NCBI GenBank assembly: GCA_965371625.1
Contig: CBDUZE010000001.1
Coordinates: forward strand, 71,320-135,319
DNA length: 64,000 bases
Reading direction: 5' to 3'
Origin: an uncultured Alphaproteobacteria bacterium
GTDB taxonomy: Bacteria; Pseudomonadota; Alphaproteobacteria; CBDUZE01
Made by a program: the position numbers and the translations under genes. The notes beneath the pieces were generated by a model that saw nothing but the letters and a program-made list of their open reading frames with translations, made no database searches and was not told the origin of the DNA. Shown here in pieces: positions 3,299-12,601 of this stretch. Positions within the stretch are counted from its first letter, which is position 1. Each line of letters opens with the position of its first letter.

Positions 3299-5002
3299 GT
3301 GACCGAGGTGATCGCGACCGACGTGCTGGTGATCGGGGGCGGCGCCGCCGGCGCCAACGCGGCGCTCAAGGCGGCGGATCGGGGCGCCCGGGTGCTGATC
3401 GTGGTCAAGGGCCTGCTCGGCAAGAGCGGCTGCTCGATCTTCGCCAGCCACCTGCCCTATCACGACGTCACCACCGCCGAGAAGGGTCGCGACCGCTTCC
3501 GCTACTCGGTGCGCTACTACAACCACTATCTCACCGACCAGGAGCACGTGAAGCGCATGGGCCGGTACATGCGCAGCGAGTTCTTCGACGAGCTCGAGGA
3601 GCTCGGCCTTTACTGGCGCCGCACCGAGGACGGCGAGCTGATGCCGAGCCTCAACCGGGTGCCGGTGCTGGTGGCCCACAAGCAGGGCGCCTCGGGCGTG
3701 ATCCTCATGGACAAGCGGCGGCGCCAGATCCTGGGCCGCGGCATCCCGCTGCACGAGGAGTGCGCGGCGACATCGCTCCTCGTGGACGACGGCCGGGTGG
3801 TCGGCGCCACGGTGCTCGATCACCGCCGCGGCGAGCTCTTCGCGGTGCTGGCCAAGAGCACCATCGTCGCCACCGGACATTCGGACTACCTCGCGACCCG
3901 GGCCACCGCGACGCGGGAGCAGTCGGCCGACGGCATCGCCATGGCGCTCGGCGCCGGCGCCGAACTCGCCAACCTCGAGATCCAGTGGTGGCACGTCAGC
4001 GACATGGCCGAGCCCCGCACCTGGATGCGCCTGCACCTCTACCCCAACCCCCTCCTGGGCACGGCCGAGACCGCGCGCCTCTATAACTCAGAGGGCGAGA
4101 TGTTCTACGAGCAGGTCAGCCACAGCCCGGGCTCCTCGGCGCCCTACGTCGAGCAGATCCGCCGCCTCAGCCTCGAGGTCGAGGCCGGCAAGGCGCGCTG
4201 GGACGGGGGCTACACCTCGGGCTACGACCACATTCCGCCCGAGGTCATCAAGAGCCATCAGCACCAGGCCAAGGTGTGGGGCAAGCTGGGCCTCGACGTG
4301 GGCTCCGACCGCCTGGAGTGCGGCATCACCTGGCACATGCGCCAGGGCGGTATCGACGTCGACCCCGAGACGATGCGGACCAGCGTCCCCGGCCTCTACG
4401 CCGCCGGCGGCATCGGCGGCCATTACCTGGGCGGGGTGGGGCCGGTGAGCTACGACGGCAAGGTGGCGGGCGAGGCCGCCGCCGAGCAGGCCGGGGCGGA
4501 AAGCGAGCCGCGGCCGCCGACGGAAGCCATCGCCGCCGAGGAGCAGCGGGTCTTCGGCTTCCTCCAGGCCGGCAGGGGTGGCCCCCGCCCGATCGAGCTC
4601 AAGCTGCGCCTGCGCGAGATCATGTGGAAGCTCGGCTACGTCAAGAACGAGGCCAAGCTCGGCGCCGCCCTCGAGCGGATCGAAGCGCTGCGCGCGCGCG
4701 AGCTGCCGCGCCTCCGGCTCGAGCACGCCTCGCGGGCCTGGAACAGCGGCTGGGGCGACGCGCTCGACCTCTGCTCGATGCTCGACGCCTGCGAGGCCAC
4801 GGTGCGCTCAGGACTCTTGAGGAAGGAGAGCCGGGGGCCGTTCTACCGCGAGGACTATCCTTTCGTCGACAACGAGAACTGGCTCAGGAAGGTGATCTTG
4901 AGCCGCGTCGACGGCAAGTGGGGCTCCCGCACCGAGCCCTACGCCCTGCCCTATCTCACCCCCGAGAAGGGCCGCGAGCCCTTCTTCGAGGCGGACTATT
5001 AG
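3299..5002 (+). CDS. Succinate dehydrogenase/fumarate reductase flavoprotein-family FAD oxidoreductase, paralog 1 (non-covalent FAD type)
   Basis: DVLVIGGGAAGANAALKAA Rossmann motif near the N-terminus. C-terminal ESRGPFYREDYPFVDNENWLRKV matches the Sdh/Frd flavoprotein C-terminal domain. GKSGCS replaces the RSHT covalent-FAD motif. Start set at an in-frame GTG by analogy with paralog 2; the 3065 ATG would leave no promoter space against hyuA. Confidence 0.65.
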   Translation: MTEVIATDVLVIGGGAAGANAALKAADRGARVLIVVKGLLGKSGCSIFASHLPYHDVTTAEKGRDRFRYSVRYYNHYLTDQEHVKRMGRYMRSEFFDELEELGLYWRRTEDGELMPSLNRVPVLVAHKQGASGVILMDKRRRQILGRGIPLHEECAATSLLVDDGRVVGATVLDHRRGELFAVLAKSTIVATGHSDYLATRATATREQSADGIAMALGAGAELANLEIQWWHVSDMAEPRTWMRLHLYPNPLLGTAETARLYNSEGEMFYEQVSHSPGSSAPYVEQIRRLSLEVEAGKARWDGGYTSGYDHIPPEVIKSHQHQAKVWGKLGLDVGSDRLECGITWHMRQGGIDVDPETMRTSVPGLYAAGGIGGHYLGGVGPVSYDGKVAGEAAAEQAGAESEPRPPTEAIAAEEQRVFGFLQAGRGGPRPIELKLRLREIMWKLGYVKNEAKLGAALERIEALRARELPRLRLEHASRAWNSGWGDALDLCSMLDACEATVRSGLLRKESRGPFYREDYPFVDNENWLRKVILSRVDGKWGSRTEPYALPYLTPEKGREPFFEADY

Positions 5003-5020
5003 CATGCCCGCGCGGCAGCG

Positions 5021-6742
5021 ATGGCGGGAGGGTTTAGGGTGACCGGGGTGCTCTCGACCGACGTCCTGGTGATCGGCGGCGGCGCCGCCGGTGCCCACAC
5101 CGCGCTCGAGGCGGCGGCCCGCGGGGCCCGGGTACAGATGGTCGTCAAGGGCCTTTTGGGCAAGAGCGGCTGCTCGATCTTCGCCGGCTACTTCCCCTAC
5201 CCCGATGTGACGACGCCGGAAAAAAGCCACGAGCGGCTCGTCAACTCGGTGCGCTACTACAACCACTACCTCACCGATCAGGACTACGTGATGCGCATGG
5301 AAGCCTACATGCGCGACGAGTTCTTCGCCGAGCTCGAGCGCCTCGGCGTCTATTGGCGGCGCCGCGACGACGGCGCGCTCGAGGTGAGCCCCAACCGCGG
5401 CCGGCTGGTGGTGGCCCAGAAGCAGGGCGCCTCGGGCACCATCATCATGGACAAGCTGAGGCGGCGCATCCTGAGCCTGGGCATCCCGGTGCGCGAGGAG
5501 TGCGCCGCCACCGGCCTTTTGGTCGACGACGGCCGCGTGGTGGGCGCCACCGTGCTCGACACCCGCCGCGGCGAGCTCTTCGTGGTGCTGGCCAAGGCCA
5601 CCGTCATCGCCACCGGCCATTCGGACTTCCTGGCGCGGCGCGCCACCGCGACGCGCGAGCAGTCGGCCGACGGCATCGCCATGGCGCTCGGCGCCGGCGC
5701 CGAGCTCGCCAACCTCGAGATCCAGTGGTGGCACGTCAGCGACATGGCCGAGCCCCGGGCCTGGATGCGCATGCACATCACGCCGAGCGGCCTGCTGGGC
5801 ACGGCCGAGACCGCGCGCCTCTACAACGCCAACGGCGAGATGTTCTACGAGCAGGCCACCCACAGCCCCACCTCGACAATCCCCTATGTCGAGCAGCTGC
5901 GCCGCCTCAGCCGCCAGGTCGAAGCGGGAACGGCGCGCTGGGACGGCGGCTACTACTCGGGCTACGACCACATCCCGCCCGAGGTCATCGAGAGCGGCCA
6001 GCAGCACGCCAAGGTGTGGCAGAAGCTCGGCCTCGAGCTCGGCAAGGACCGCCTGGAAGGCGGCATCTCCTGGCACATGCGCCAGGGCGGCATCGACCTC
6101 GAGCCTGAGACCATGCAGACCAGGGTGCCGGGGCTCTACGCCGCCGGGGCGGTCGGCGGCCACTACCTGGGCGGGCTGGCGCCGGCCAGTTACGACGGCC
6201 GCGTGGCCGGCGCGGCCACGGCCGAGTTCGCCGCCGCGACCCCGGCGCCGGCGCCGCCCGAGGGGGCCATCGCCGCCGAGCAAGAGCGGGTCTTGGGCTT
6301 GCTCCGGACCGCCGCCGAGGGGCCCCGTCCCACCGAGCTCAAGACCCGGGTGCGCGAGATCATGTGGCAGCTCGGCTACGTCAAGAACGAGGCCAAGCTC
6401 GGCGCCGCCCTGGCCGCGCTCGAGAGCGTGCGCGAGGAAGAGCTCCCGCGCCTCCGGCTCGAGCGCGCCGCGCGGACCTGGAACACCGACTGGCTCGATG
6501 CCCTCGACCTCTGCTCGATGCTCGATGCCTGCGAGGCCGCGGTGCGCTCAGGGCTCGTTCGCACCGAGAGCCGGGGGCCCTTCTTCCGCGATGACTACGC
6601 TTACGTCGATAACGCGAACTGGCTGCGCAAGGTGCTGATCAGCCGGGCCGACGGGGAGTGGGGTTCGCGCACCGAGCCCTACGACCTGCCCTACGTCCGT
6701 CCCGAGGCGGACCGCGAGCCCTTCTTCGAGGTGGACTACTGA
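5021..6742 (+). CDS. Succinate dehydrogenase/fumarate reductase flavoprotein-family FAD oxidoreductase, paralog 2
   Basis: 573-aa ORF about 75% identical to paralog 1 over its full length, with the same FAD N-terminal and Sdh/Frd C-terminal signatures. Confidence 0.75.
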   Translation: MAGGFRVTGVLSTDVLVIGGGAAGAHTALEAAARGARVQMVVKGLLGKSGCSIFAGYFPYPDVTTPEKSHERLVNSVRYYNHYLTDQDYVMRMEAYMRDEFFAELERLGVYWRRRDDGALEVSPNRGRLVVAQKQGASGTIIMDKLRRRILSLGIPVREECAATGLLVDDGRVVGATVLDTRRGELFVVLAKATVIATGHSDFLARRATATREQSADGIAMALGAGAELANLEIQWWHVSDMAEPRAWMRMHITPSGLLGTAETARLYNANGEMFYEQATHSPTSTIPYVEQLRRLSRQVEAGTARWDGGYYSGYDHIPPEVIESGQQHAKVWQKLGLELGKDRLEGGISWHMRQGGIDLEPETMQTRVPGLYAAGAVGGHYLGGLAPASYDGRVAGAATAEFAAATPAPAPPEGAIAAEQERVLGLLRTAAEGPRPTELKTRVREIMWQLGYVKNEAKLGAALAALESVREEELPRLRLERAARTWNTDWLDALDLCSMLDACEAAVRSGLVRTESRGPFFRDDYAYVDNANWLRKVLISRADGEWGSRTEPYDLPYVRPEADREPFFEVDY

Positions 6743-6743
6743 C

Positions 6744-7667
6744 ATGGACGTGATCTCAGCCCGCATCTTCCGCTTCGATCCCGCGAGCGACGAGGGCCCG
6801 CGCTACGACACCTTCGAGGTGCCGGCGGCGCCCCGCATGCGGGTGCTCGACGTGCTCGACTACGTCCACGAGCGCCTGGCCCAGGACATCGCCTACCGCT
6901 GGTTCTGTGGCGTCAAGAAGTGCGGCACCTGCGCGGTGACCGTGAACGGCTCGCCGGCGCTGGCCTGCTGGGAGGCGGCTCAGCCCGAGATGACCATCGA
7001 GCCGCTCAACAACCTGCCCGTGGTGCGCGACCTGGTGACCGAGCGCGAGCCCTACGAGAAGCTCTTAGCCCAGCTCTCTCCCTTGCTCGTCCGCAAGGAC
7101 GACTACCCCGGCTTCCCCGAGCCCCTGTCGGCGCTCGAGATGGCGCCGGCGCGCCACCTGCGCGACTGCATCCAGTGCCTCGCCTGCGTCGCCGCCTGTC
7201 CGGTGCTGGAGCAGCCCGAGAGCGGCTTCGCCGGCCCCGCCGCCCTGGTGGCGCTGGCCGAGCTCGCGCTCGACCCCCGCGACGGCGCCGACCGCGCCCG
7301 GCTGGCGCAAGAGATCGGCCAGGTCTTCAAGTGCGTCTCATGTTACGAGTGCGAGCGCGTGTGCCCGGCCGAGATCCCCATCGTCGGCGACGCCATCGAA
7401 CCCTTGAAGCGCATGGTCACCCGGCGCGGCGAGGGCGCGGGCGCCGGCCACGCCAGGGCCTTCCTCGAGGTGGTCAAGGCGCACGGCAAGCTCAACGCGC
7501 CGCGCCTGGCGCTGCGCACTCGAGGCCTCACTCTCGATGCTTTGAGGACCGGGGCGCGCCTCGCCGCCCGCGGCAAGGTCGACCTGGTCGAGGCTTTCCT
7601 GGGGCGCCCGCCCAAGGGCGCGGCGGCGCTGCGACGAACCTTGGACGCCAGCGAGGACGACCGATGA
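6744..7667 (+). CDS. Iron-sulfur subunit (SdhB/FrdB-like; 2Fe-2S ferredoxin-like domain plus 4Fe-4S cysteine clusters)
   Basis: CGTCAV 2Fe-2S-like motif. CIQCLACVAACP and CVSCYECERVCP cluster motifs. Immediately follows the flavoprotein genes. Confidence 0.75.
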   Translation: MDVISARIFRFDPASDEGPRYDTFEVPAAPRMRVLDVLDYVHERLAQDIAYRWFCGVKKCGTCAVTVNGSPALACWEAAQPEMTIEPLNNLPVVRDLVTEREPYEKLLAQLSPLLVRKDDYPGFPEPLSALEMAPARHLRDCIQCLACVAACPVLEQPESGFAGPAALVALAELALDPRDGADRARLAQEIGQVFKCVSCYECERVCPAEIPIVGDAIEPLKRMVTRRGEGAGAGHARAFLEVVKAHGKLNAPRLALRTRGLTLDALRTGARLAARGKVDLVEAFLGRPPKGAAALRRTLDASEDDR

Positions 7668-8554
7668 CCCGGCGCTACGCCTACTTCCCCGGCTGCTCGG
7701 CCAAGGGCAGCTGCCGCGAGCTCGACATCAGCACCCTGGCCGTGGCCCGTGCCTTCGACATCGAGCTTACCGAGCTCGAGGACGCCGGCTGCACCGGCGC
7801 GCGGGAGTTCCGCGCCATCAGCGAGCAGCTCCAGCTCACCGCCAATGGCCGCATCCTGGCCCTGGCCGAGGCGCAAGGCTCGGACCTGGTGGCGGTCTGC
7901 GACACCTGTCTGTTGAACCTGATGGAGACCAACCAGCGGCTGAAGGCCGACCCGGCCGCCCTCGAGACGGTCAACCGTGCCCTCGCTGAGGGGGACCTCG
8001 AATACCGCGGCGGGATCGCGGTCAAGCACTTCCTCTGGGTGCTCTCGGAGGACGTGGGCGAGGCGCGGCTCCGCGAACGGGTGACGCGGCCCTTGAACGG
8101 GCTTCGGGTGGCGCCGTTCTACGGCTGCCACATCCGCCGCCCGGCGAGCGCCTACGGCGCCGAGGTCCCGGACCGGGCGACCTCGCTCGACCGCCTCTGC
8201 GAGATCGTCGGCGCCGAGCCGGTGGCCTACGACGGCGCCGACAAGTGCTGCGGCTTCCACGTCGTGATGGCGGAGGAGAAGATCGCGCTTCGGATGGGCG
8301 GCGCCCGCCTCGCCGGCGCCCGCGACCAGGGCGCCGACTGCCTGGTGACGCCCTGCCCGCTCTGCCACACCGTGCTCGACGCCTATCAGCCCAACATCGA
8401 GCGCCAGCTCGAGCAGCGCTTCGAGATCCCCATCCTCCACGTCTCGCAGCTGATGGGGCTCGCTCTGGGGCTTTCACCCGAGGCGCTCGCCCTCCCCCGC
8501 CACATGGTCGACGCCGGCGGGGTGCTCGCGGCGGTCGGGGGCGAGAACGCCTGA
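7664..8554 (+). CDS. CCG-domain subunit (HdrB/SdhE/TfrB-like, two cysteine-rich CCG motifs)
   Basis: Start ATG overlaps the upstream stop (ATGA). Motifs YFPGCSAKGSC, FYGCHIRRP and CPLCHTVLDAY are typical of heterodisulfide-reductase subunit B-like domains, as found in type E Sdh and in MfrE/TfrB. Confidence 0.7.
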   Translation: MTRRYAYFPGCSAKGSCRELDISTLAVARAFDIELTELEDAGCTGAREFRAISEQLQLTANGRILALAEAQGSDLVAVCDTCLLNLMETNQRLKADPAALETVNRALAEGDLEYRGGIAVKHFLWVLSEDVGEARLRERVTRPLNGLRVAPFYGCHIRRPASAYGAEVPDRATSLDRLCEIVGAEPVAYDGADKCCGFHVVMAEEKIALRMGGARLAGARDQGADCLVTPCPLCHTVLDAYQPNIERQLEQRFEIPILHVSQLMGLALGLSPEALALPRHMVDAGGVLAAVGGENA

Positions 8555-8591: not shown

Positions 8592-9443
8592 TCAAGCGAC
8601 CAGAGGCATCTCGATCGGCTTGACCTGATCGATCGTGCTTTTGTTGATGATCTCGAGCTCCTCCCGCTCGGTCTCGATTGGGAAGAAACTCAGATCGCTG
8701 TTCAGGACATCGACCACACGTTGATGTTCCGTAACGAAGACCTTCCCTTTCCTTGTCTCGCCGTCAATCGTGATGATCTCGACCTCGAGCCGGTCGAGGC
8801 TGGTAGACACCTTCATTGGGGCGCCATTGTCGATGGGAATGACCCGTGAAAGAGTCGCCTTGGTGATCACCTGGAACTCCCCGTCGTCGCTCTCGAACGG
8901 CAGAAAGCTCTTTTCATTGGCAATCACGTCGGACACCCGTTCGCCCTTGGCACAATAGATTTTCCCCTGGAGGACGCTGCCATCGAGCTTTACAAGCCGC
9001 ACCGTGGCAGGGTCCTTGTGTTGCCAATTGCTGTTTTCCATATCCGCCTTCCTTTCCTGCGTCACTTGGACCGCCAGTGCCTCACCAATCTCCGCAATAA
9101 AATTCTGCTTGGAAACGGCGATCGCGGCAGTCATGCCTTTGGCTACGCTTAACGTCCTGGCCATTTCCGCGTACTTCGGCGAGTAGCCGGTAACGATGAT
9201 CAACCTGGCTGTGCATCCTTGGTCGCCCAGCCAGTTGATCAATTCGATGCCGTCGACGTCGGGCATCACCACTTCGAGCATGATTACGTCCGGATTGAAG
9301 GTCTCGAATGACTCTTTGAAATCCCGCGCCCGGGTCGTGACATTGACCTCGAAGCCAGCCTCATCGGCGGCCTGGCGCACGTACTCGCCGAAGTCTTTAT
9401 CGTTGTCGATAATCAGGAAGCGATTCTTGCTCACAACCAACAT
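8592..9443 (-). CDS. Atypical single-domain response regulator (Glu at the phospho-acceptor position) fused to two tandem copies of an uncharacterised ~65-aa domain
   Basis: N-terminal REC fold (LIIDNDKD...DVIMLEVVMPDVDG...LIIVTGY...SKQ). The residue aligned to the phosphorylatable Asp is Glu. The C-terminus holds two repeats of pattern DGxxxxGKxxxxxxxRVxDVxNxxxxFxPxExxxxExxxIxKxxIxxVxPI. Lower GC than surroundings. Start chosen at MLVVSKN. Confidence 0.6.
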   Translation of the reverse strand: MLVVSKNRFLIIDNDKDFGEYVRQAADEAGFEVNVTTRARDFKESFETFNPDVIMLEVVMPDVDGIELINWLGDQGCTARLIIVTGYSPKYAEMARTLSVAKGMTAAIAVSKQNFIAEIGEALAVQVTQERKADMENSNWQHKDPATVRLVKLDGSVLQGKIYCAKGERVSDVIANEKSFLPFESDDGEFQVITKATLSRVIPIDNGAPMKVSTSLDRLEVEIITIDGETRKGKVFVTEHQRVVDVLNSDLSFFPIETEREELEIINKSTIDQVKPIEMPLVA

Positions 9444-9455
9444 CCAACACAAATT

Positions 9456-9487
9456 GTGGCGACACCATTGGACGTGGCGACACCATT
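9456..9487. promoter_or_regulatory. 14-bp direct repeat GTGGCGACACCATT x2 (18-bp period) immediately upstream of the response-regulator start
   Basis: Read directly in sequence at 9456-9469 and 9474-9487. Lies in the divergent RR/luxI intergenic region. Confidence 0.5.
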
Positions 9488-9616
9488 AGGGTACGGGGCG
9501 AAACCGTCGGTCCGCACACTATCGACGGGCAGAGCCCGACTACACCTGTCATCTCCTCAAGAATATGGCCTGTCAACTCGTCCAAAAGGCGGATGTATCT
9601 CCTCGTGGGAGTCCTT

Positions 9617-9654
9617 CTAACCTGCCAATACTGACCTAACCTGCCAATACTGAC
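9617..9654. promoter_or_regulatory. Perfect 19-bp tandem duplication CTAACCTGCCAATACTGAC x2, 20-57 bp upstream of luxI start; candidate LuxR-type operator (lux-box-like ACCTG start)
   Basis: Read directly in sequence. Position overlaps the expected -35/-10 region of the luxI-family gene. Confidence 0.5.
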
Positions 9655-9673
9655 GGGAGAAAGGTGTGGGATC

Positions 9674-10279
9674 ATGTCGAACGTGACGCTAGAGTTCGGA
9701 AAAATCCACGAGCTTCCCAAGCGTATGGTGGATCAGATGTTTCGATTGCGGGCGCTGGTTTTTGACCAGCAGCTTGGATGGGTGAAATCCAACGGGGAGA
9801 CGGAGATCGACTATTACGACGCGCTCGGTCCCGTCTACGTCGTCTGCCACGCCCCAGCCGATGAAGTAATCGCCGCCGTTCGGCTGCTCCCCAGCAGCGG
9901 CCCCAACATGCTTCGCGACGTGTTCCCCGAGCTCCTGTGCGGCAAAGACCCGCCCTGGGCGGATGACGTATGGGAGTCGAGCCGCTTCTTCGCCGTTGGC
10001 CGACCGCCCGAGATTTCTCCCGTCCAGACCGCGTTCAAACTGGTTGAAGGCATGTTCACCTGCGCTCTGGCACGAGGGTGGCGTGGAATCGTCTCGGTCA
10101 GCGACGTACGCATGGAGCGGCTGATGCGCCGGACTGGCGTGCGGATCAACCGTTTCGGACCACCGCAGCGGATTGGCAACATGTTGGCGATGGCGGGATG
10201 GGCCGACGTGACGCGTGAAAACCTCAACCTCTCCGCCAACGCCGCCGGTTCGACCGGAGACCTTCGCCTGGCCTCCTAG
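9674..10279 (+). CDS. luxI: Acyl-homoserine-lactone synthase (LuxI family autoinducer synthase)
   Basis: FRLRALVFDQQLGW, YYD and SRF motifs conserved in LuxI-family synthases. 201 aa. Confidence 0.85.
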   Translation: MSNVTLEFGKIHELPKRMVDQMFRLRALVFDQQLGWVKSNGETEIDYYDALGPVYVVCHAPADEVIAAVRLLPSSGPNMLRDVFPELLCGKDPPWADDVWESSRFFAVGRPPEISPVQTAFKLVEGMFTCALARGWRGIVSVSDVRMERLMRRTGVRINRFGPPQRIGNMLAMAGWADVTRENLNLSANAAGSTGDLRLAS

Positions 10280-10303
10280 GGCGTCGACCGAGCCGCCGAG
10301 GAG

Positions 10304-11749
10304 TTGGCGGGCGCTTCACCAGGTATGAGAGGACCTCGAGAAATGGACGCGATAGTCAGACCCAATTGCCCGGGACAAGTAGTCCCGCGGGATGTGCCCT
10401 TGCTACGTGGCGCGCCAGTGATCGGCGCGCTGCTACCGATCCGAAAAGATCCTCTCAATTTCTTCGTCAACATCCGACGAGCCTTGGGCGATGTCGTCAA
10501 GGTGAATGTCGGAAACGACCAAGTCCTGTTCGTCGCCGACCCCGAGATCATCGAGCACGTTCTGGAGACCAACCACCGCAACTATGTCAAGAGCCGCCAT
10601 CTCAAGCGAATGGCGACGATCTTCGACTCCAACGTCATCGTTGCGGACGGCGAGGACTGGCGTCGGAGGCGCAAGTTCCTTCGCCCCGCGCTCGCTCGCG
10701 AGCATATCGATGAGCTCGGTTGGCTGGTGGTTGGCGAAGTCACCGCGATGGTCGAGCGCTGGCGCCTCGCCTCACGCCAGGGCCAACCGATCAACGCTTT
10801 GGACGAGTTCATGGATCTCACCCTTGGCGTCATCGTGAAGTCCTTGTTGGGTGTGGGCATCGGACCTCGAGGGCCGATGATCGCCCGCGCCCTTGCCGTC
10901 ATGCTGGCGGCCAGTGAGCGACGCCTTTGGACACCGATCAATGTGCCAATCTCGGTGCCCATTCCCAGCAATCGCGCACTCAAGCGAGCAATCGCGCAAT
11001 TCGACCAGTTGATCTATTCGATCATCGGCGAACGCAGGCAATCGGCTGAAGGTCGCAACGATATCCTAACGGTTCTGCTGTCGGCGGAAGGCGACCCACA
11101 CGATCCCATATCGGACGTCGATATCAGAGACGAAATCGTGGGCATGATCGTTGCCGGTCACGAAACGACGGCGACGACACTAACCTGGACCGTCGAGGCC
11201 CTGTCTCGCCATCCCAATATCGATCGCAGGCTCCGTGCCGAGGTTCAGGAAGTGCTGCAGGGCAGAACGCCGACGATCAGCGACGCGGCCGATCTGAAGT
11301 ACTGCAGGATGGTTCTCCAGGAGACGATGCGCCTGCGCCCGCCGGTGTGGACCGTATCGAGGGAGGCGTTGGCGGACGATCAGGTAAATGGGGTTCGGAT
11401 TCCGGCTGGAACCGTCGTCATGATGTCGCCGTTCGTGGTCCACCGGCATGAAGGCTACTGGCCCAATCCGGAGGGCTTCGACCCGGAACGCTTCGTCGAT
11501 GGCGAGCCGGACGGTGCGGCAAAGTACGCCTATTTCCCGTTCGCGGGCGGGCCGCGCAGGTGCGTGGGGCAACATTTCTCGATGACCGAAATGCTGATCG
11601 CCCTGCCCATGTTGATCCAGAATTTCCAGCTCAGTCTCATACCCGGACACCCGGTCGAGATGCAACCGATGGTGACCCTACGTCCCCGACACGGACTATG
11701 GATGCTTGTGTCGGACGCCGCCGCCGCGACGCAACAACGCGCCGCATGA
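10304..11749 (+). CDS. Cytochrome P450 monooxygenase
   Basis: FPFAGGPRRCVGQHFSMTEM haem-thiolate loop, ETMRLRPP (ExxR) and AGHETT I-helix motif. True start may be Met at ~10343. Confidence 0.85.
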   Translation: MAGASPGMRGPREMDAIVRPNCPGQVVPRDVPLLRGAPVIGALLPIRKDPLNFFVNIRRALGDVVKVNVGNDQVLFVADPEIIEHVLETNHRNYVKSRHLKRMATIFDSNVIVADGEDWRRRRKFLRPALAREHIDELGWLVVGEVTAMVERWRLASRQGQPINALDEFMDLTLGVIVKSLLGVGIGPRGPMIARALAVMLAASERRLWTPINVPISVPIPSNRALKRAIAQFDQLIYSIIGERRQSAEGRNDILTVLLSAEGDPHDPISDVDIRDEIVGMIVAGHETTATTLTWTVEALSRHPNIDRRLRAEVQEVLQGRTPTISDAADLKYCRMVLQETMRLRPPVWTVSREALADDQVNGVRIPAGTVVMMSPFVVHRHEGYWPNPEGFDPERFVDGEPDGAAKYAYFPFAGGPRRCVGQHFSMTEMLIALPMLIQNFQLSLIPGHPVEMQPMVTLRPRHGLWMLVSDAAAATQQRAA

Positions 11750-11842
11750 CGGGCTATCTTGGCGACACTTTAGCTGATATCGCCTTTCGTGGACGGATCG
11801 CTGTGGTATAATTCAACCGATCGTAGGATCGGGGGACTCGAA

Positions 11843-12601
11843 ATGGTGCGCAAATCCCTGATCGGCTTCGTCGGACGTCTGGAAAGCGCGCGGACATTGG
11901 ACGAGTGCGGTGAGGTAATCGTCGACATTGCCGACGCGTGCGATTCCTCGAACTACCTCACCTACTTCGGCACCCTGTCTCATGACGCGCGAACCTATCC
12001 CGGCACCATGTTTCAGGAACAGCCGCTGTCCATTTACAACTTCCCGCAGGCCTGGGCCGAAATCTACCTCGGCCAAATGCTGTTCCGGATCGACCCCGTG
12101 ATGCAGCGCTGCCTGCACTCGGTGGTCCCAGTGTTCTGGCACGACGAGCTGCGCGGCGCCGATGAGGAGGGGAGACGGTTCTTCGCCATGGCCCGCGAGC
12201 ATGGGCTGGCGGCCGGGTTGACCGTCCCGATCCACGCCCGCCACGGCAGCTTCGGGGCGTTTGCCCTGTCCTTCGACAACGACGCCGCCGAGACGCTGCG
12301 GCATATCGAGGCCATCGCGCCCGATCTCCATGTGCTGAGCTTTCACGTCTACGCCAACCTGCGGCGGATCGCCAGCGTGGAAGAGCCGGCACCGGCGCTG
12401 CCGCGGCTGACGCCCAGGGAAAAGCAGGTCCTGTTGTGGACCGCGTCGGGCAAGACGATCTGGGAGATCTCGGTCATCCTCTCGATCTCCCAGAGAACCG
12501 CCAAGCAGCACCTGTCGAGCGTGATGGCCAAGCTCGGCGTGGAGAACAAGTTTCATGCCGTGGCGGAAGCCGTGGCCTGCGGTCTGACAAAGGCCTATTG
12601 A
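11843..12601 (+). CDS. luxR: LuxR-family AHL-responsive transcriptional regulator
   Basis: Autoinducer-binding residues (W, Y, DP, W) in the N-terminal domain. C-terminal LTPREKQVLLWTASGKTIWEISVILSISQRTAKQHL HTH. ORF begins at 11789; start chosen at MVRKSL. Confidence 0.8.
   Translation: MVRKSLIGFVGRLESARTLDECGEVIVDIADACDSSNYLTYFGTLSHDARTYPGTMFQEQPLSIYNFPQAWAEIYLGQMLFRIDPVMQRCLHSVVPVFWHDELRGADEEGRRFFAMAREHGLAAGLTVPIHARHGSFGAFALSFDNDAAETLRHIEAIAPDLHVLSFHVYANLRRIASVEEPAPALPRLTPREKQVLLWTASGKTIWEISVILSISQRTAKQHLSSVMAKLGVENKFHAVAEAVACGLTKAY

Follow-up and report, generated by a model that had tools for sequence, protein, structure and literature searches.

A putative aspartate-less receiver fused to tandem DUF6812 domains in a luxI–P450–luxR island of an uncultured alphaproteobacterium

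The DNA considered here is a 64,000-nucleotide stretch from an uncultured alphaproteobacterium (contig CBDUZE010000001.1, positions 71,320 to 135,319), referred to throughout as the window, and the gene in question lies at 8592..9443 on its minus strand. It encodes a 283-amino acid (aa) protein in which an N-terminal response-regulator receiver (REC) domain is joined, through a helical linker that models poorly, to two predicted ~60-aa β-barrels of the DUF6812 family in tandem; gene and product will be called RR, for response regulator. The isoelectric point (pI) of the whole protein is 4.7 and its net charge -15. RR is one of the four genes of a horizontally acquired luxI–P450–luxR island. 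Its open reading frame extends upstream to give 8592..9452 (minus strand), which would encode 286 aa if translation began at TTG 9452; the candidate starts, all within 9434-9452, are this TTG, ATG 9443 and GTG 9434. One of the homologous loci, L004, has ATA where ATG 9443 stands, and position 9434 is occupied by GTG or TTG in all loci; judged by the sequences, GTG 9434 and ATG 9443 appear equally plausible. A GGA 9 nt 5' of GTG 9434 could be the Shine-Dalgarno element of the gene. Residue numbers used below are those of the 283-aa version, counted from ATG 9443.

The receiver (residues 1-112; 9108..9443, minus strand) is matched by Pfam Response_reg (PF00072) over residues ~10-90, with an E-value of 6.9e-13 and a score of 49.2 bits against a cutoff of 30.2. 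The match covers profile positions 2-83 of 111, the α4-β5-α5 third of the domain being too divergent, and in the AlphaFold2 (AF2) model strands and helices alternate through β5. Foldseek, run with the full RR model, gave 350 matches at E ≤ 1e-3, and all of those listed are receiver-domain proteins. The N-terminal part of RR thus has a REC fold, and that fold is beyond doubt. The domain is also not decaying, since its ratio of nonsynonymous to synonymous divergence (dN/dS) is 0.15-0.32 among four orthologues. Of the more specific matches, CpdR, the top NCBIfam match of the receiver, scores 39 bits, far below its cutoff of 180, and a PADLOC match to SduA (E 2e-4), which falls within the REC, was not considered meaningful.

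A preliminary description of this gene, made from the letters of the DNA alone, had placed Glu where response regulators carry their phosphorylatable Asp, and independent alignments bear this out. Glu57 (codon GAA, 9273..9275, minus strand) lies opposite the phospho-acceptor Asp in HMMER alignments to the solved response regulators 3a0r, 3eqz and 1nxo, in which RR IMLEVVMPDVDGIE is set against VILDIEMPGISGLE and IILDLMMPDMDGIE of solved regulators; MAFFT, aligning RR with CheY, Spo0F and PhoB, likewise puts it at the acceptor position, that of CheY Asp57 at the end of β3. Mis-alignment had been named as the way in which this assignment might fail, and neither the HMMER nor the MAFFT alignments place an Asp at the acceptor position. 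Glu57 is kept in all seven of the full-length orthologues aligned, the check by homologues that had been proposed. The remainder of the pocket is less regular than had been described, with an intact acidic pair, Thr and Lys. The Thr stands: Thr85 aligns with the conserved β4 Thr (Ser in one orthologue). The acidic pair does not, as it reads Asp13-Asn14 in RR, with Asn14 (codon AAC, 9402..9404, minus strand) at the second acidic-pocket position, that of CheY Asp13; the orthologues have Asp-Asp or Asp-Glu there. The pocket Lys is K102 by MAFFT and K112, at the end of β5, by the AF2 model; this region lies outside the Pfam match, and both lysines are invariant among the orthologues.

By these alignments RR is a putative pseudo-receiver, that is, a protein which profile software knows as a receiver and which is without the acceptor Asp. 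With Glu at the canonical acceptor position, a histidine kinase would not be expected to phosphorylate RR there, and the view that RR is not phosphorylated at the canonical site seems well supported. The opposite view would make RR a conventional, phosphorylatable regulator with its kinase encoded elsewhere, Glu57 having been mis-aligned or some other residue taking the phosphate; Asp13, Thr85 and a pocket Lys are indeed retained, the orthologues keep both acidic residues, and orphan response-regulator genes are common and mostly encode typical regulators (PMC12632262). We consider it very improbable, because the two kinds of alignment independently agree in placing an orthologue-invariant Glu57 at the end of β3, because the second metal ligand has also been lost, at Asn14, in the RR of the window, and because the only nearby Asp is Asp52, in an NPD before β3. 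A site of this kind, ahead of β3, is commonly a non-acceptor one in typical receivers.

Several percent of all receiver domains are pseudo-receivers, whose switching and roles are largely unknown (PMC12632262). In aspartate-less receivers (ALRs) the acceptor position is most often taken by Glu (26%), and only 29% of them are acidic at the second position of the acidic pair, where Asn is the most frequent replacement (PMC4395418, PMC12632262). Asp→Glu and Asp→Asn are therefore the commonest changes of this class, and as features of RR they are ordinary. The preliminary description had called the Glu phosphomimetic and taken it to imply constitutively active-like signalling, which is overstated: besides being the commonest ALR replacement, a change of Asp to Glu is frequently insufficient on its own for constitutive activity, and in ChxR a change of the Glu to Asp or Ala alone left constitutive DNA binding in place (PMC4395418, PMC12632262). 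Known ALRs such as Chlamydia ChxR with its Glu at the acceptor, the plant pseudo-response regulators and fungal Rim15p have in common with RR a Pfam-recognised REC lacking the acceptor Asp. Asn as the second acidic residue, an orphan gene without a kinase and an uncommon output domain likewise fit RR, uncommon output domains being over-represented among aspartate-less receivers (PMC12632262); where RR differs is in the output itself, which is a pair of DUF6812 barrels and not a DNA-binding domain. RssB and CpdR offer a second comparison, as their REC is coupled to, or serves as, a protein-interaction module, and RssB is among the Foldseek matches of the RR receiver. Both keep the phosphorylatable Asp, however, and have outputs unrelated to DUF6812, and no sign that RR targets proteins to a protease was seen in this analysis.

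That there is no cognate kinase nearby, as had been noted earlier, agrees with a wider survey, which turned up no other two-component gene in the neighbourhood either. Precomputed Pfam annotation of four loci shows no kinase up to about ±8 kb away, a crude motif scan found no H-box motif in the 64-kb window, and tblastn found no further significant REC match there.

The C-terminal half of RR consists of two copies of a small domain, barrel 1 at residues 143-205 (8829..9017, minus strand) and barrel 2 at residues 217-280 (8604..8795, minus strand), both recognised by Pfam, by the AF2 model and as an internal repeat. Residues ~144-205 and ~217-278 form a gapless 62-aa alignment with 34% identity (E 1e-15 for a pairwise search space); the tandem duplication seen in the preliminary description is thus real, and the consensus pattern given for it approximately right. 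The domain had there been called unassignable, and this gave way to a profile search: Pfam DUF6812 (PF20660) matches RR in two stretches, with 39.9 bits against a cutoff of 27.1, the match spanning only about half of the 53-position profile. PF20660 is also matched by 84 of 85 related domains. DUF6812 is catalogued but functionally uncharacterised, so the duplicated domain does not correspond to a well-characterised family, the outcome that had been named as refuting the observation.

An exhaustive HMMER search with the C-terminal 146 aa, made against 1.84 billion cluster representatives (50% identity), matched 111 clusters at E ≤ 1e-3, of which 109 are DUF6812 and two, Kelch and InlB-repeat proteins, are false positives. 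Most of the DUF6812 matches are single-domain proteins of 75-100 aa or tandem proteins of ~150 aa. There are also multi-repeat proteins, one with 3 repeats and one with 5 (P0012, P0015), as well as fusions to J-domains (P0070, P0099, P0109) and to a transmembrane segment and Sel1 repeats (P0082); a C-terminal hydrophobic segment of P0015 resembles a membrane anchor. A REC is present only in RR's own cluster among the 111. In an alignment of 85 domain sequences, G10, G15, R24, D27, N30, F35, P37 and K50 are nearly invariant, and these residues are common to RR and the stand-alone DUF6812 proteins (~80-100 aa when single, ~150 aa when tandem); the two differ in that only the RR cluster has an N-terminal REC and in that the stand-alone genes recovered do not lie beside luxI. 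A word-index protein search gave no scoring matches with the single-domain alignment and only 5 close relatives with the C-terminal 146 aa. Two entries call for caution: the metagenomic P0010 (320 aa), which has a near-identical barrel 2 behind an unrelated N-terminal region, probably reflects chimeric assembly or faulty gene calling, and the "IF-1" label (JGI) on P0009 is an automated name without support. The fusion of REC with two DUF6812 domains is thus rare as a combination within a protein class that is itself common; it is found in one 50%-identity cluster from one narrow uncultured lineage, and the literature library searched had nothing on REC–Sm-like or REC–DUF6812 regulators.

The tandem unit was modelled by AF2 with a predicted local distance difference test score (pLDDT) of 95.3 and a predicted template modelling score (pTM) of 0.87. 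Each barrel in the model runs β1-β2-short helix-β3-β4-β5, and the conserved linker between the barrels is structured. Foldseek with the tandem barrels returned nothing from the PDB below E 1e-3. The best single-domain match was Staphylococcus aureus Hfq (1kq2_H), with a probability of 1.00, a template modelling (TM) score of 0.66 and a root mean square deviation of 2.9 Å over 59 columns, at an E-value of 0.18; 5o9z_e, a spliceosomal chain of Sm size (78 aa), was also listed. Tandem Tudor domains ranked first, yet with a TM score of ~0.24, and were set aside. When the DUF6812 domain profile was compared by hhalign with Hfq (four sequences), the whole Sm core was aligned, with P 3.7e-4 and a probability of 36%; a 12-residue insertion in DUF6812 corresponds to the RVxDxLN helix between β2 and β3, and the nearly invariant Gly10, Gly15, Phe35 and Lys50 fall opposite Hfq Gly29, Gly34, Phe42 and Lys56. 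Eight of the 85 domains weakly match Pfam Hfq_1 (best E 0.0044), and one multi-repeat relative has a weak match to SM-ATX. Sequence-profile searches of the PDB gave nothing significant (E at least 0.05), with Hfq recurring below threshold; the DnaJ matches in them stem from the J-domain fusions inside the query alignment. Two other families were also set aside. PilZ, a c-di-GMP-binding β-barrel with RxxxR and D/NxSxxG motifs, gave no profile match at E ≤ 1 in Pfam, and the sequence, read by eye, has DGxxxxG without RxxxR; KOW/GPKOW_C reached 19 bits against a cutoff of 65.

DUF6812 thus has in common with Hfq and the bacterial Sm-like proteins a five-stranded bent β-barrel and the equivalents of the conserved Sm1/Sm2 Gly, Gly, Phe and Lys. 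From Hfq it is set apart by the lack of significant sequence similarity, by the inserted helix, by having no helix ahead of β1 in the AF2 model where Hfq has its N-terminal α-helix, and by being acidic rather than basic: among 145 DUF6812 domains 81% are net negative and the median pI is 4.95, against ~10 for the Hfq core. Hfq, moreover, is a homohexamer, whereas the barrels of RR form a covalent tandem. On the evidence of the models we conclude that DUF6812 is in all likelihood an SH3/Sm-like small barrel, plausibly a distant relative of the Sm proteins, and that it lies outside the Hfq family.

The same likenesses bear on what the barrels might bind. One possibility is that they form an Hfq-like RNA chaperone output, binding RNA, perhaps as a trimer of tandems that makes up a pseudo-hexameric ring, and acting post-transcriptionally on the luxI, P450, luxR or RR mRNA. 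Hfq's standing as the best single-domain solved match, the complete alignment of the Sm core with its four nearly invariant equivalents, the weak Hfq_1 and SM-ATX matches and the recurrence of Hfq below threshold all point this way; the sequence relationship is nevertheless not significant (hhalign probability 36%, Pfam E at least 0.004), the domains lack the N-terminal helix, carry the 12-residue helix insertion between β2 and β3 and do not keep His57 of the YKH motif, and their median pI is ~5 where that of Hfq is ~10. Taken with the evidence from the region upstream of RR, given below, we regard an RNA chaperone of this kind as rather unlikely.

Between the receiver and the barrels lies an extended α5/linker helix (residues 113-142, with the helix at 112-137 in the model; 9018..9107, minus strand), which is the least confident part of the AF2 model (pLDDT 69 and 56 for blocks in 121-140). 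It is under relaxed selection, with dN/dS of 0.25-0.95. For the REC and the barrels the values are 0.12-0.32, with the exception of 0.67 for the barrels when compared with the closely related frameshifted copy of locus L008, and both RR domains are under purifying selection. The L008 copy itself (4936-5763; P0008) has a frameshift within barrel 2 and an unrelated C-terminus, the mark either of a pseudogene or of a mistake in the assembly.

The C-terminal half of RR is closest to the stand-alone tandem proteins P0009, P0011 and P0121-P0123 (145-177 aa), with 60-69% identity, and Met135 of RR aligns with the start Met of the stand-alone proteins. In locus L006 tblastn similarity (329-832) extends beyond the stand-alone gene into its 5' leader, as far as RR residue 116, which gives the linker the look of a fusion scar, and no remnant of a receiver was found by tblastn upstream of the stand-alone tandem genes. 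The simplest reading of these alignments is an in-frame fusion that joined a REC to a complete stand-alone tandem-DUF6812 gene; the less simple alternative is that the stand-alone paralogues have lost their receiver. In L006 two such paralogues (386-835 and 2016-2549) flank a gene for a 232-aa protein without a Pfam match (1097-1795), with an amidase gene downstream, and this arrangement is seen across L005-L007; L007 and the RR-bearing L003 were recovered from one metagenome (3300041077).

The three remaining genes of the island are on the plus strand. The luxI-type gene for an acyl-homoserine lactone (AHL) synthase lies at 9674..10279 (Pfam Autoind_synth, E 3.5e-30). It is followed by a cytochrome P450 gene at 10304..11749 (Pfam p450, E 2.1e-87), these being the limits of the longest reading frame, homologues of which have been called at 443-468 aa, and by a luxR-type regulator gene at 11789..12601 (Pfam Autoind_bind and GerE), the likely start of which is ATG 11843, giving 252 aa as in its homologues. 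It may be, speculatively, that the P450 oxidises the AHL acyl chain. The island as a whole (8592..12601) has a GC content of 0.55-0.63 against 0.69-0.72 in the flanks, and its borders coincide with gene ends. GC at third codon positions (GC3) is 0.74 for RR, 0.76 for luxI, 0.73 for the P450 gene and 0.83 for luxR, and 0.93-0.95 for the flanking genes on both sides, so that RR does lie in the same low-GC block as luxI, as had been stated. No tRNA genes were detected in the 64-kb window.

Among 5.8 billion proteins only eight full-length homologues of RR were found, 79-90% identical. RR is adjacent to and divergent from luxI–P450–luxR in L001, L003, L004 and L008, which are all the loci with sufficient context, and the P450 gene sits between luxI and luxR in each of these as in the window; absence of linkage to luxI in other genomes, the outcome named beforehand as telling against the association, was therefore not what was seen. 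The linkage of RR with luxI has been retained while synonymous divergence (dS) reached 0.4-0.9. Further searches added no informative loci: two scans of one genome per GTDB species, with the RR protein and with the tandem-domain alignment, found no relatives, and a plasmid collection held no match to the DUF6812 half (tblastn) or to luxI–P450–luxR (blastn). A metagenome scan brought up only generic receiver domains (23-38% identity), its search patterns having been taken from the REC. No literature on luxI–P450–luxR cassettes was found. On its RR side the island is bordered in the window by an operon-like set of FAD flavoprotein, iron-sulfur (Fe-S) and CCG-domain genes, succinate dehydrogenase- or heterodisulfide-reductase-like (5021-8554, plus strand); the set is also present in L001, L003 and L004, and L008 shows the CCG gene together with a truncated neighbour. 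Beyond luxR, L008 has an aldo-keto reductase gene where the others have an M20 peptidase gene.

The intergenic region between RR and luxI (9444..9673) contains three families of direct repeats. The first, AATGGTGTCGCCAC (14 bp, minus strand), occurs at 9456-9469 and 9474-9487, abutting the start of RR, and is kept in all five loci, including the window. The second lies at 9545-9563 and 9569-9587. The third is a 19-bp perfect tandem duplication, CTAACCTGCCAATACTGAC twice over at 9617-9654, just 5' of luxI; no locus other than the window and the identical L001 has it, and its presence as a single copy in L003, L004 and L008 indicates a recent strain-specific duplication. A 22-nt block, CCGCCTTTTGGACGAGTTGACA (9570-9591, minus-strand sequence), is invariant in the five-locus alignment. 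No sigma-70-like promoter was detected in the intergenic region. Of the repeat-rich divergent promoter proposed earlier, then, the repeats themselves hold, with a conserved 14-bp pair; the 19-bp pair turns out to be strain-specific, and a promoter of the sigma-70 type was not seen. The conserved 14-bp repeat by the RR start codon is the one feature here that speaks for the RNA-chaperone alternative introduced above, under which the paired AATGGTGTCGCCAC would be a candidate binding site, an assignment as unlikely as that alternative itself; the RR 5' region shows no unusual RNA stability (z 0.36), and the intergenic region no match to an Rfam family.

The account of RR that we tentatively put forward is that of a kinase-independent pseudo-response regulator, its REC fused to tandem DUF6812 domains, which serves as an accessory factor of the quorum-sensing (QS) cassette and acts by binding a partner. 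Phosphorylation would have no part in the control of RR; how active it is would depend on its abundance, through transcription from the region it has in common with luxI, and/or by the binding of a partner to the REC, and control by expression level or partner binding is one model that has been discussed for pseudo-receivers (PMC12632262). The rigid pair of acidic DUF6812 barrels would then be the surface through which RR, as an accessory factor of the cassette, binds its partner. A protein, or some other partner that is not a nucleic acid, appears a little more probable than RNA or DNA, since the barrels are acidic and since members of the family are fused to J-domains and occur in membrane-anchored Sel1 proteins. 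A more far-reaching version, in which RR is a new type of QS accessory regulator whose Hfq-like barrels bind LuxR, LuxI, the P450 or their mRNAs and so set the threshold or the output, strikes us as unlikely.

RsaL, RsaM, TraM and QslA-type anti-activators are accessory regulators encoded at luxI/luxR loci. They resemble RR in being small non-enzymatic proteins beside luxI, co-inherited with the QS cassette; they are not known to be related to it in sequence or fold.

Several observations weigh against the proposal of a partner-binding accessory factor of the cassette. The orientation of REC relative to the barrels is unreliable in the AF2 model (pTM 0.52). The literature library searched yielded no paper on DUF6812/PF20660, nor functional data for any member. 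An acidic net charge says little against RNA binding when the Gly, Gly, Phe and Lys of DUF6812 match Hfq positions. The tie of RR to QS consists of adjacency and common composition in one narrow uncultured lineage; the REC-less paralogues (L005-L007, L009) are not beside luxI; and the RR loci have common flanking genes on the CCG/Fe-S side, so that their linkage counts as a single evolutionary event and not as independent evidence. No inverted repeat or lux-box-like dyad was found in the intergenic region, and with neither such a dyad nor a promoter in evidence there, control of RR by LuxR or by QS is conjecture. The suggestion that RR belongs to a QS module accordingly keeps its support from composition and synteny and loses that which a number of independent loci would have lent it.

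Much the same evidence can be read as hitch-hiking, RR merely travelling in the mobile island and working in a process unrelated to QS, for instance as a regulator or adaptor. All of the linked loci are syntenic and closely related, stand-alone DUF6812 paralogues occur in unrelated contexts (amidase, DUF2336, PhyH), and the intergenic region has no detected regulatory site tying RR to LuxR; on the other side, the atypical GC3 is common to RR, luxI, the P450 gene and luxR, the divergent arrangement with luxI has been retained over a synonymous divergence of 0.4-0.9, and both RR domains are under purifying selection. We think it doubtful that RR is such a passenger, and the tentative proposal of an accessory factor acting within the cassette is the one carried forward here.

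What sets RR apart is therefore not the Asp→Glu change but its combination of domains and its place in a QS island. The gene stands in a well-defined setting, a QS cassette of four genes, so that a role for it could be tested directly, and it would offer a way into DUF6812, whose predicted domains are small Hfq-like barrels. If RR is indeed a QS accessory regulator, it would supply the first function for DUF6812 and the first Sm-like output domain of a response regulator.

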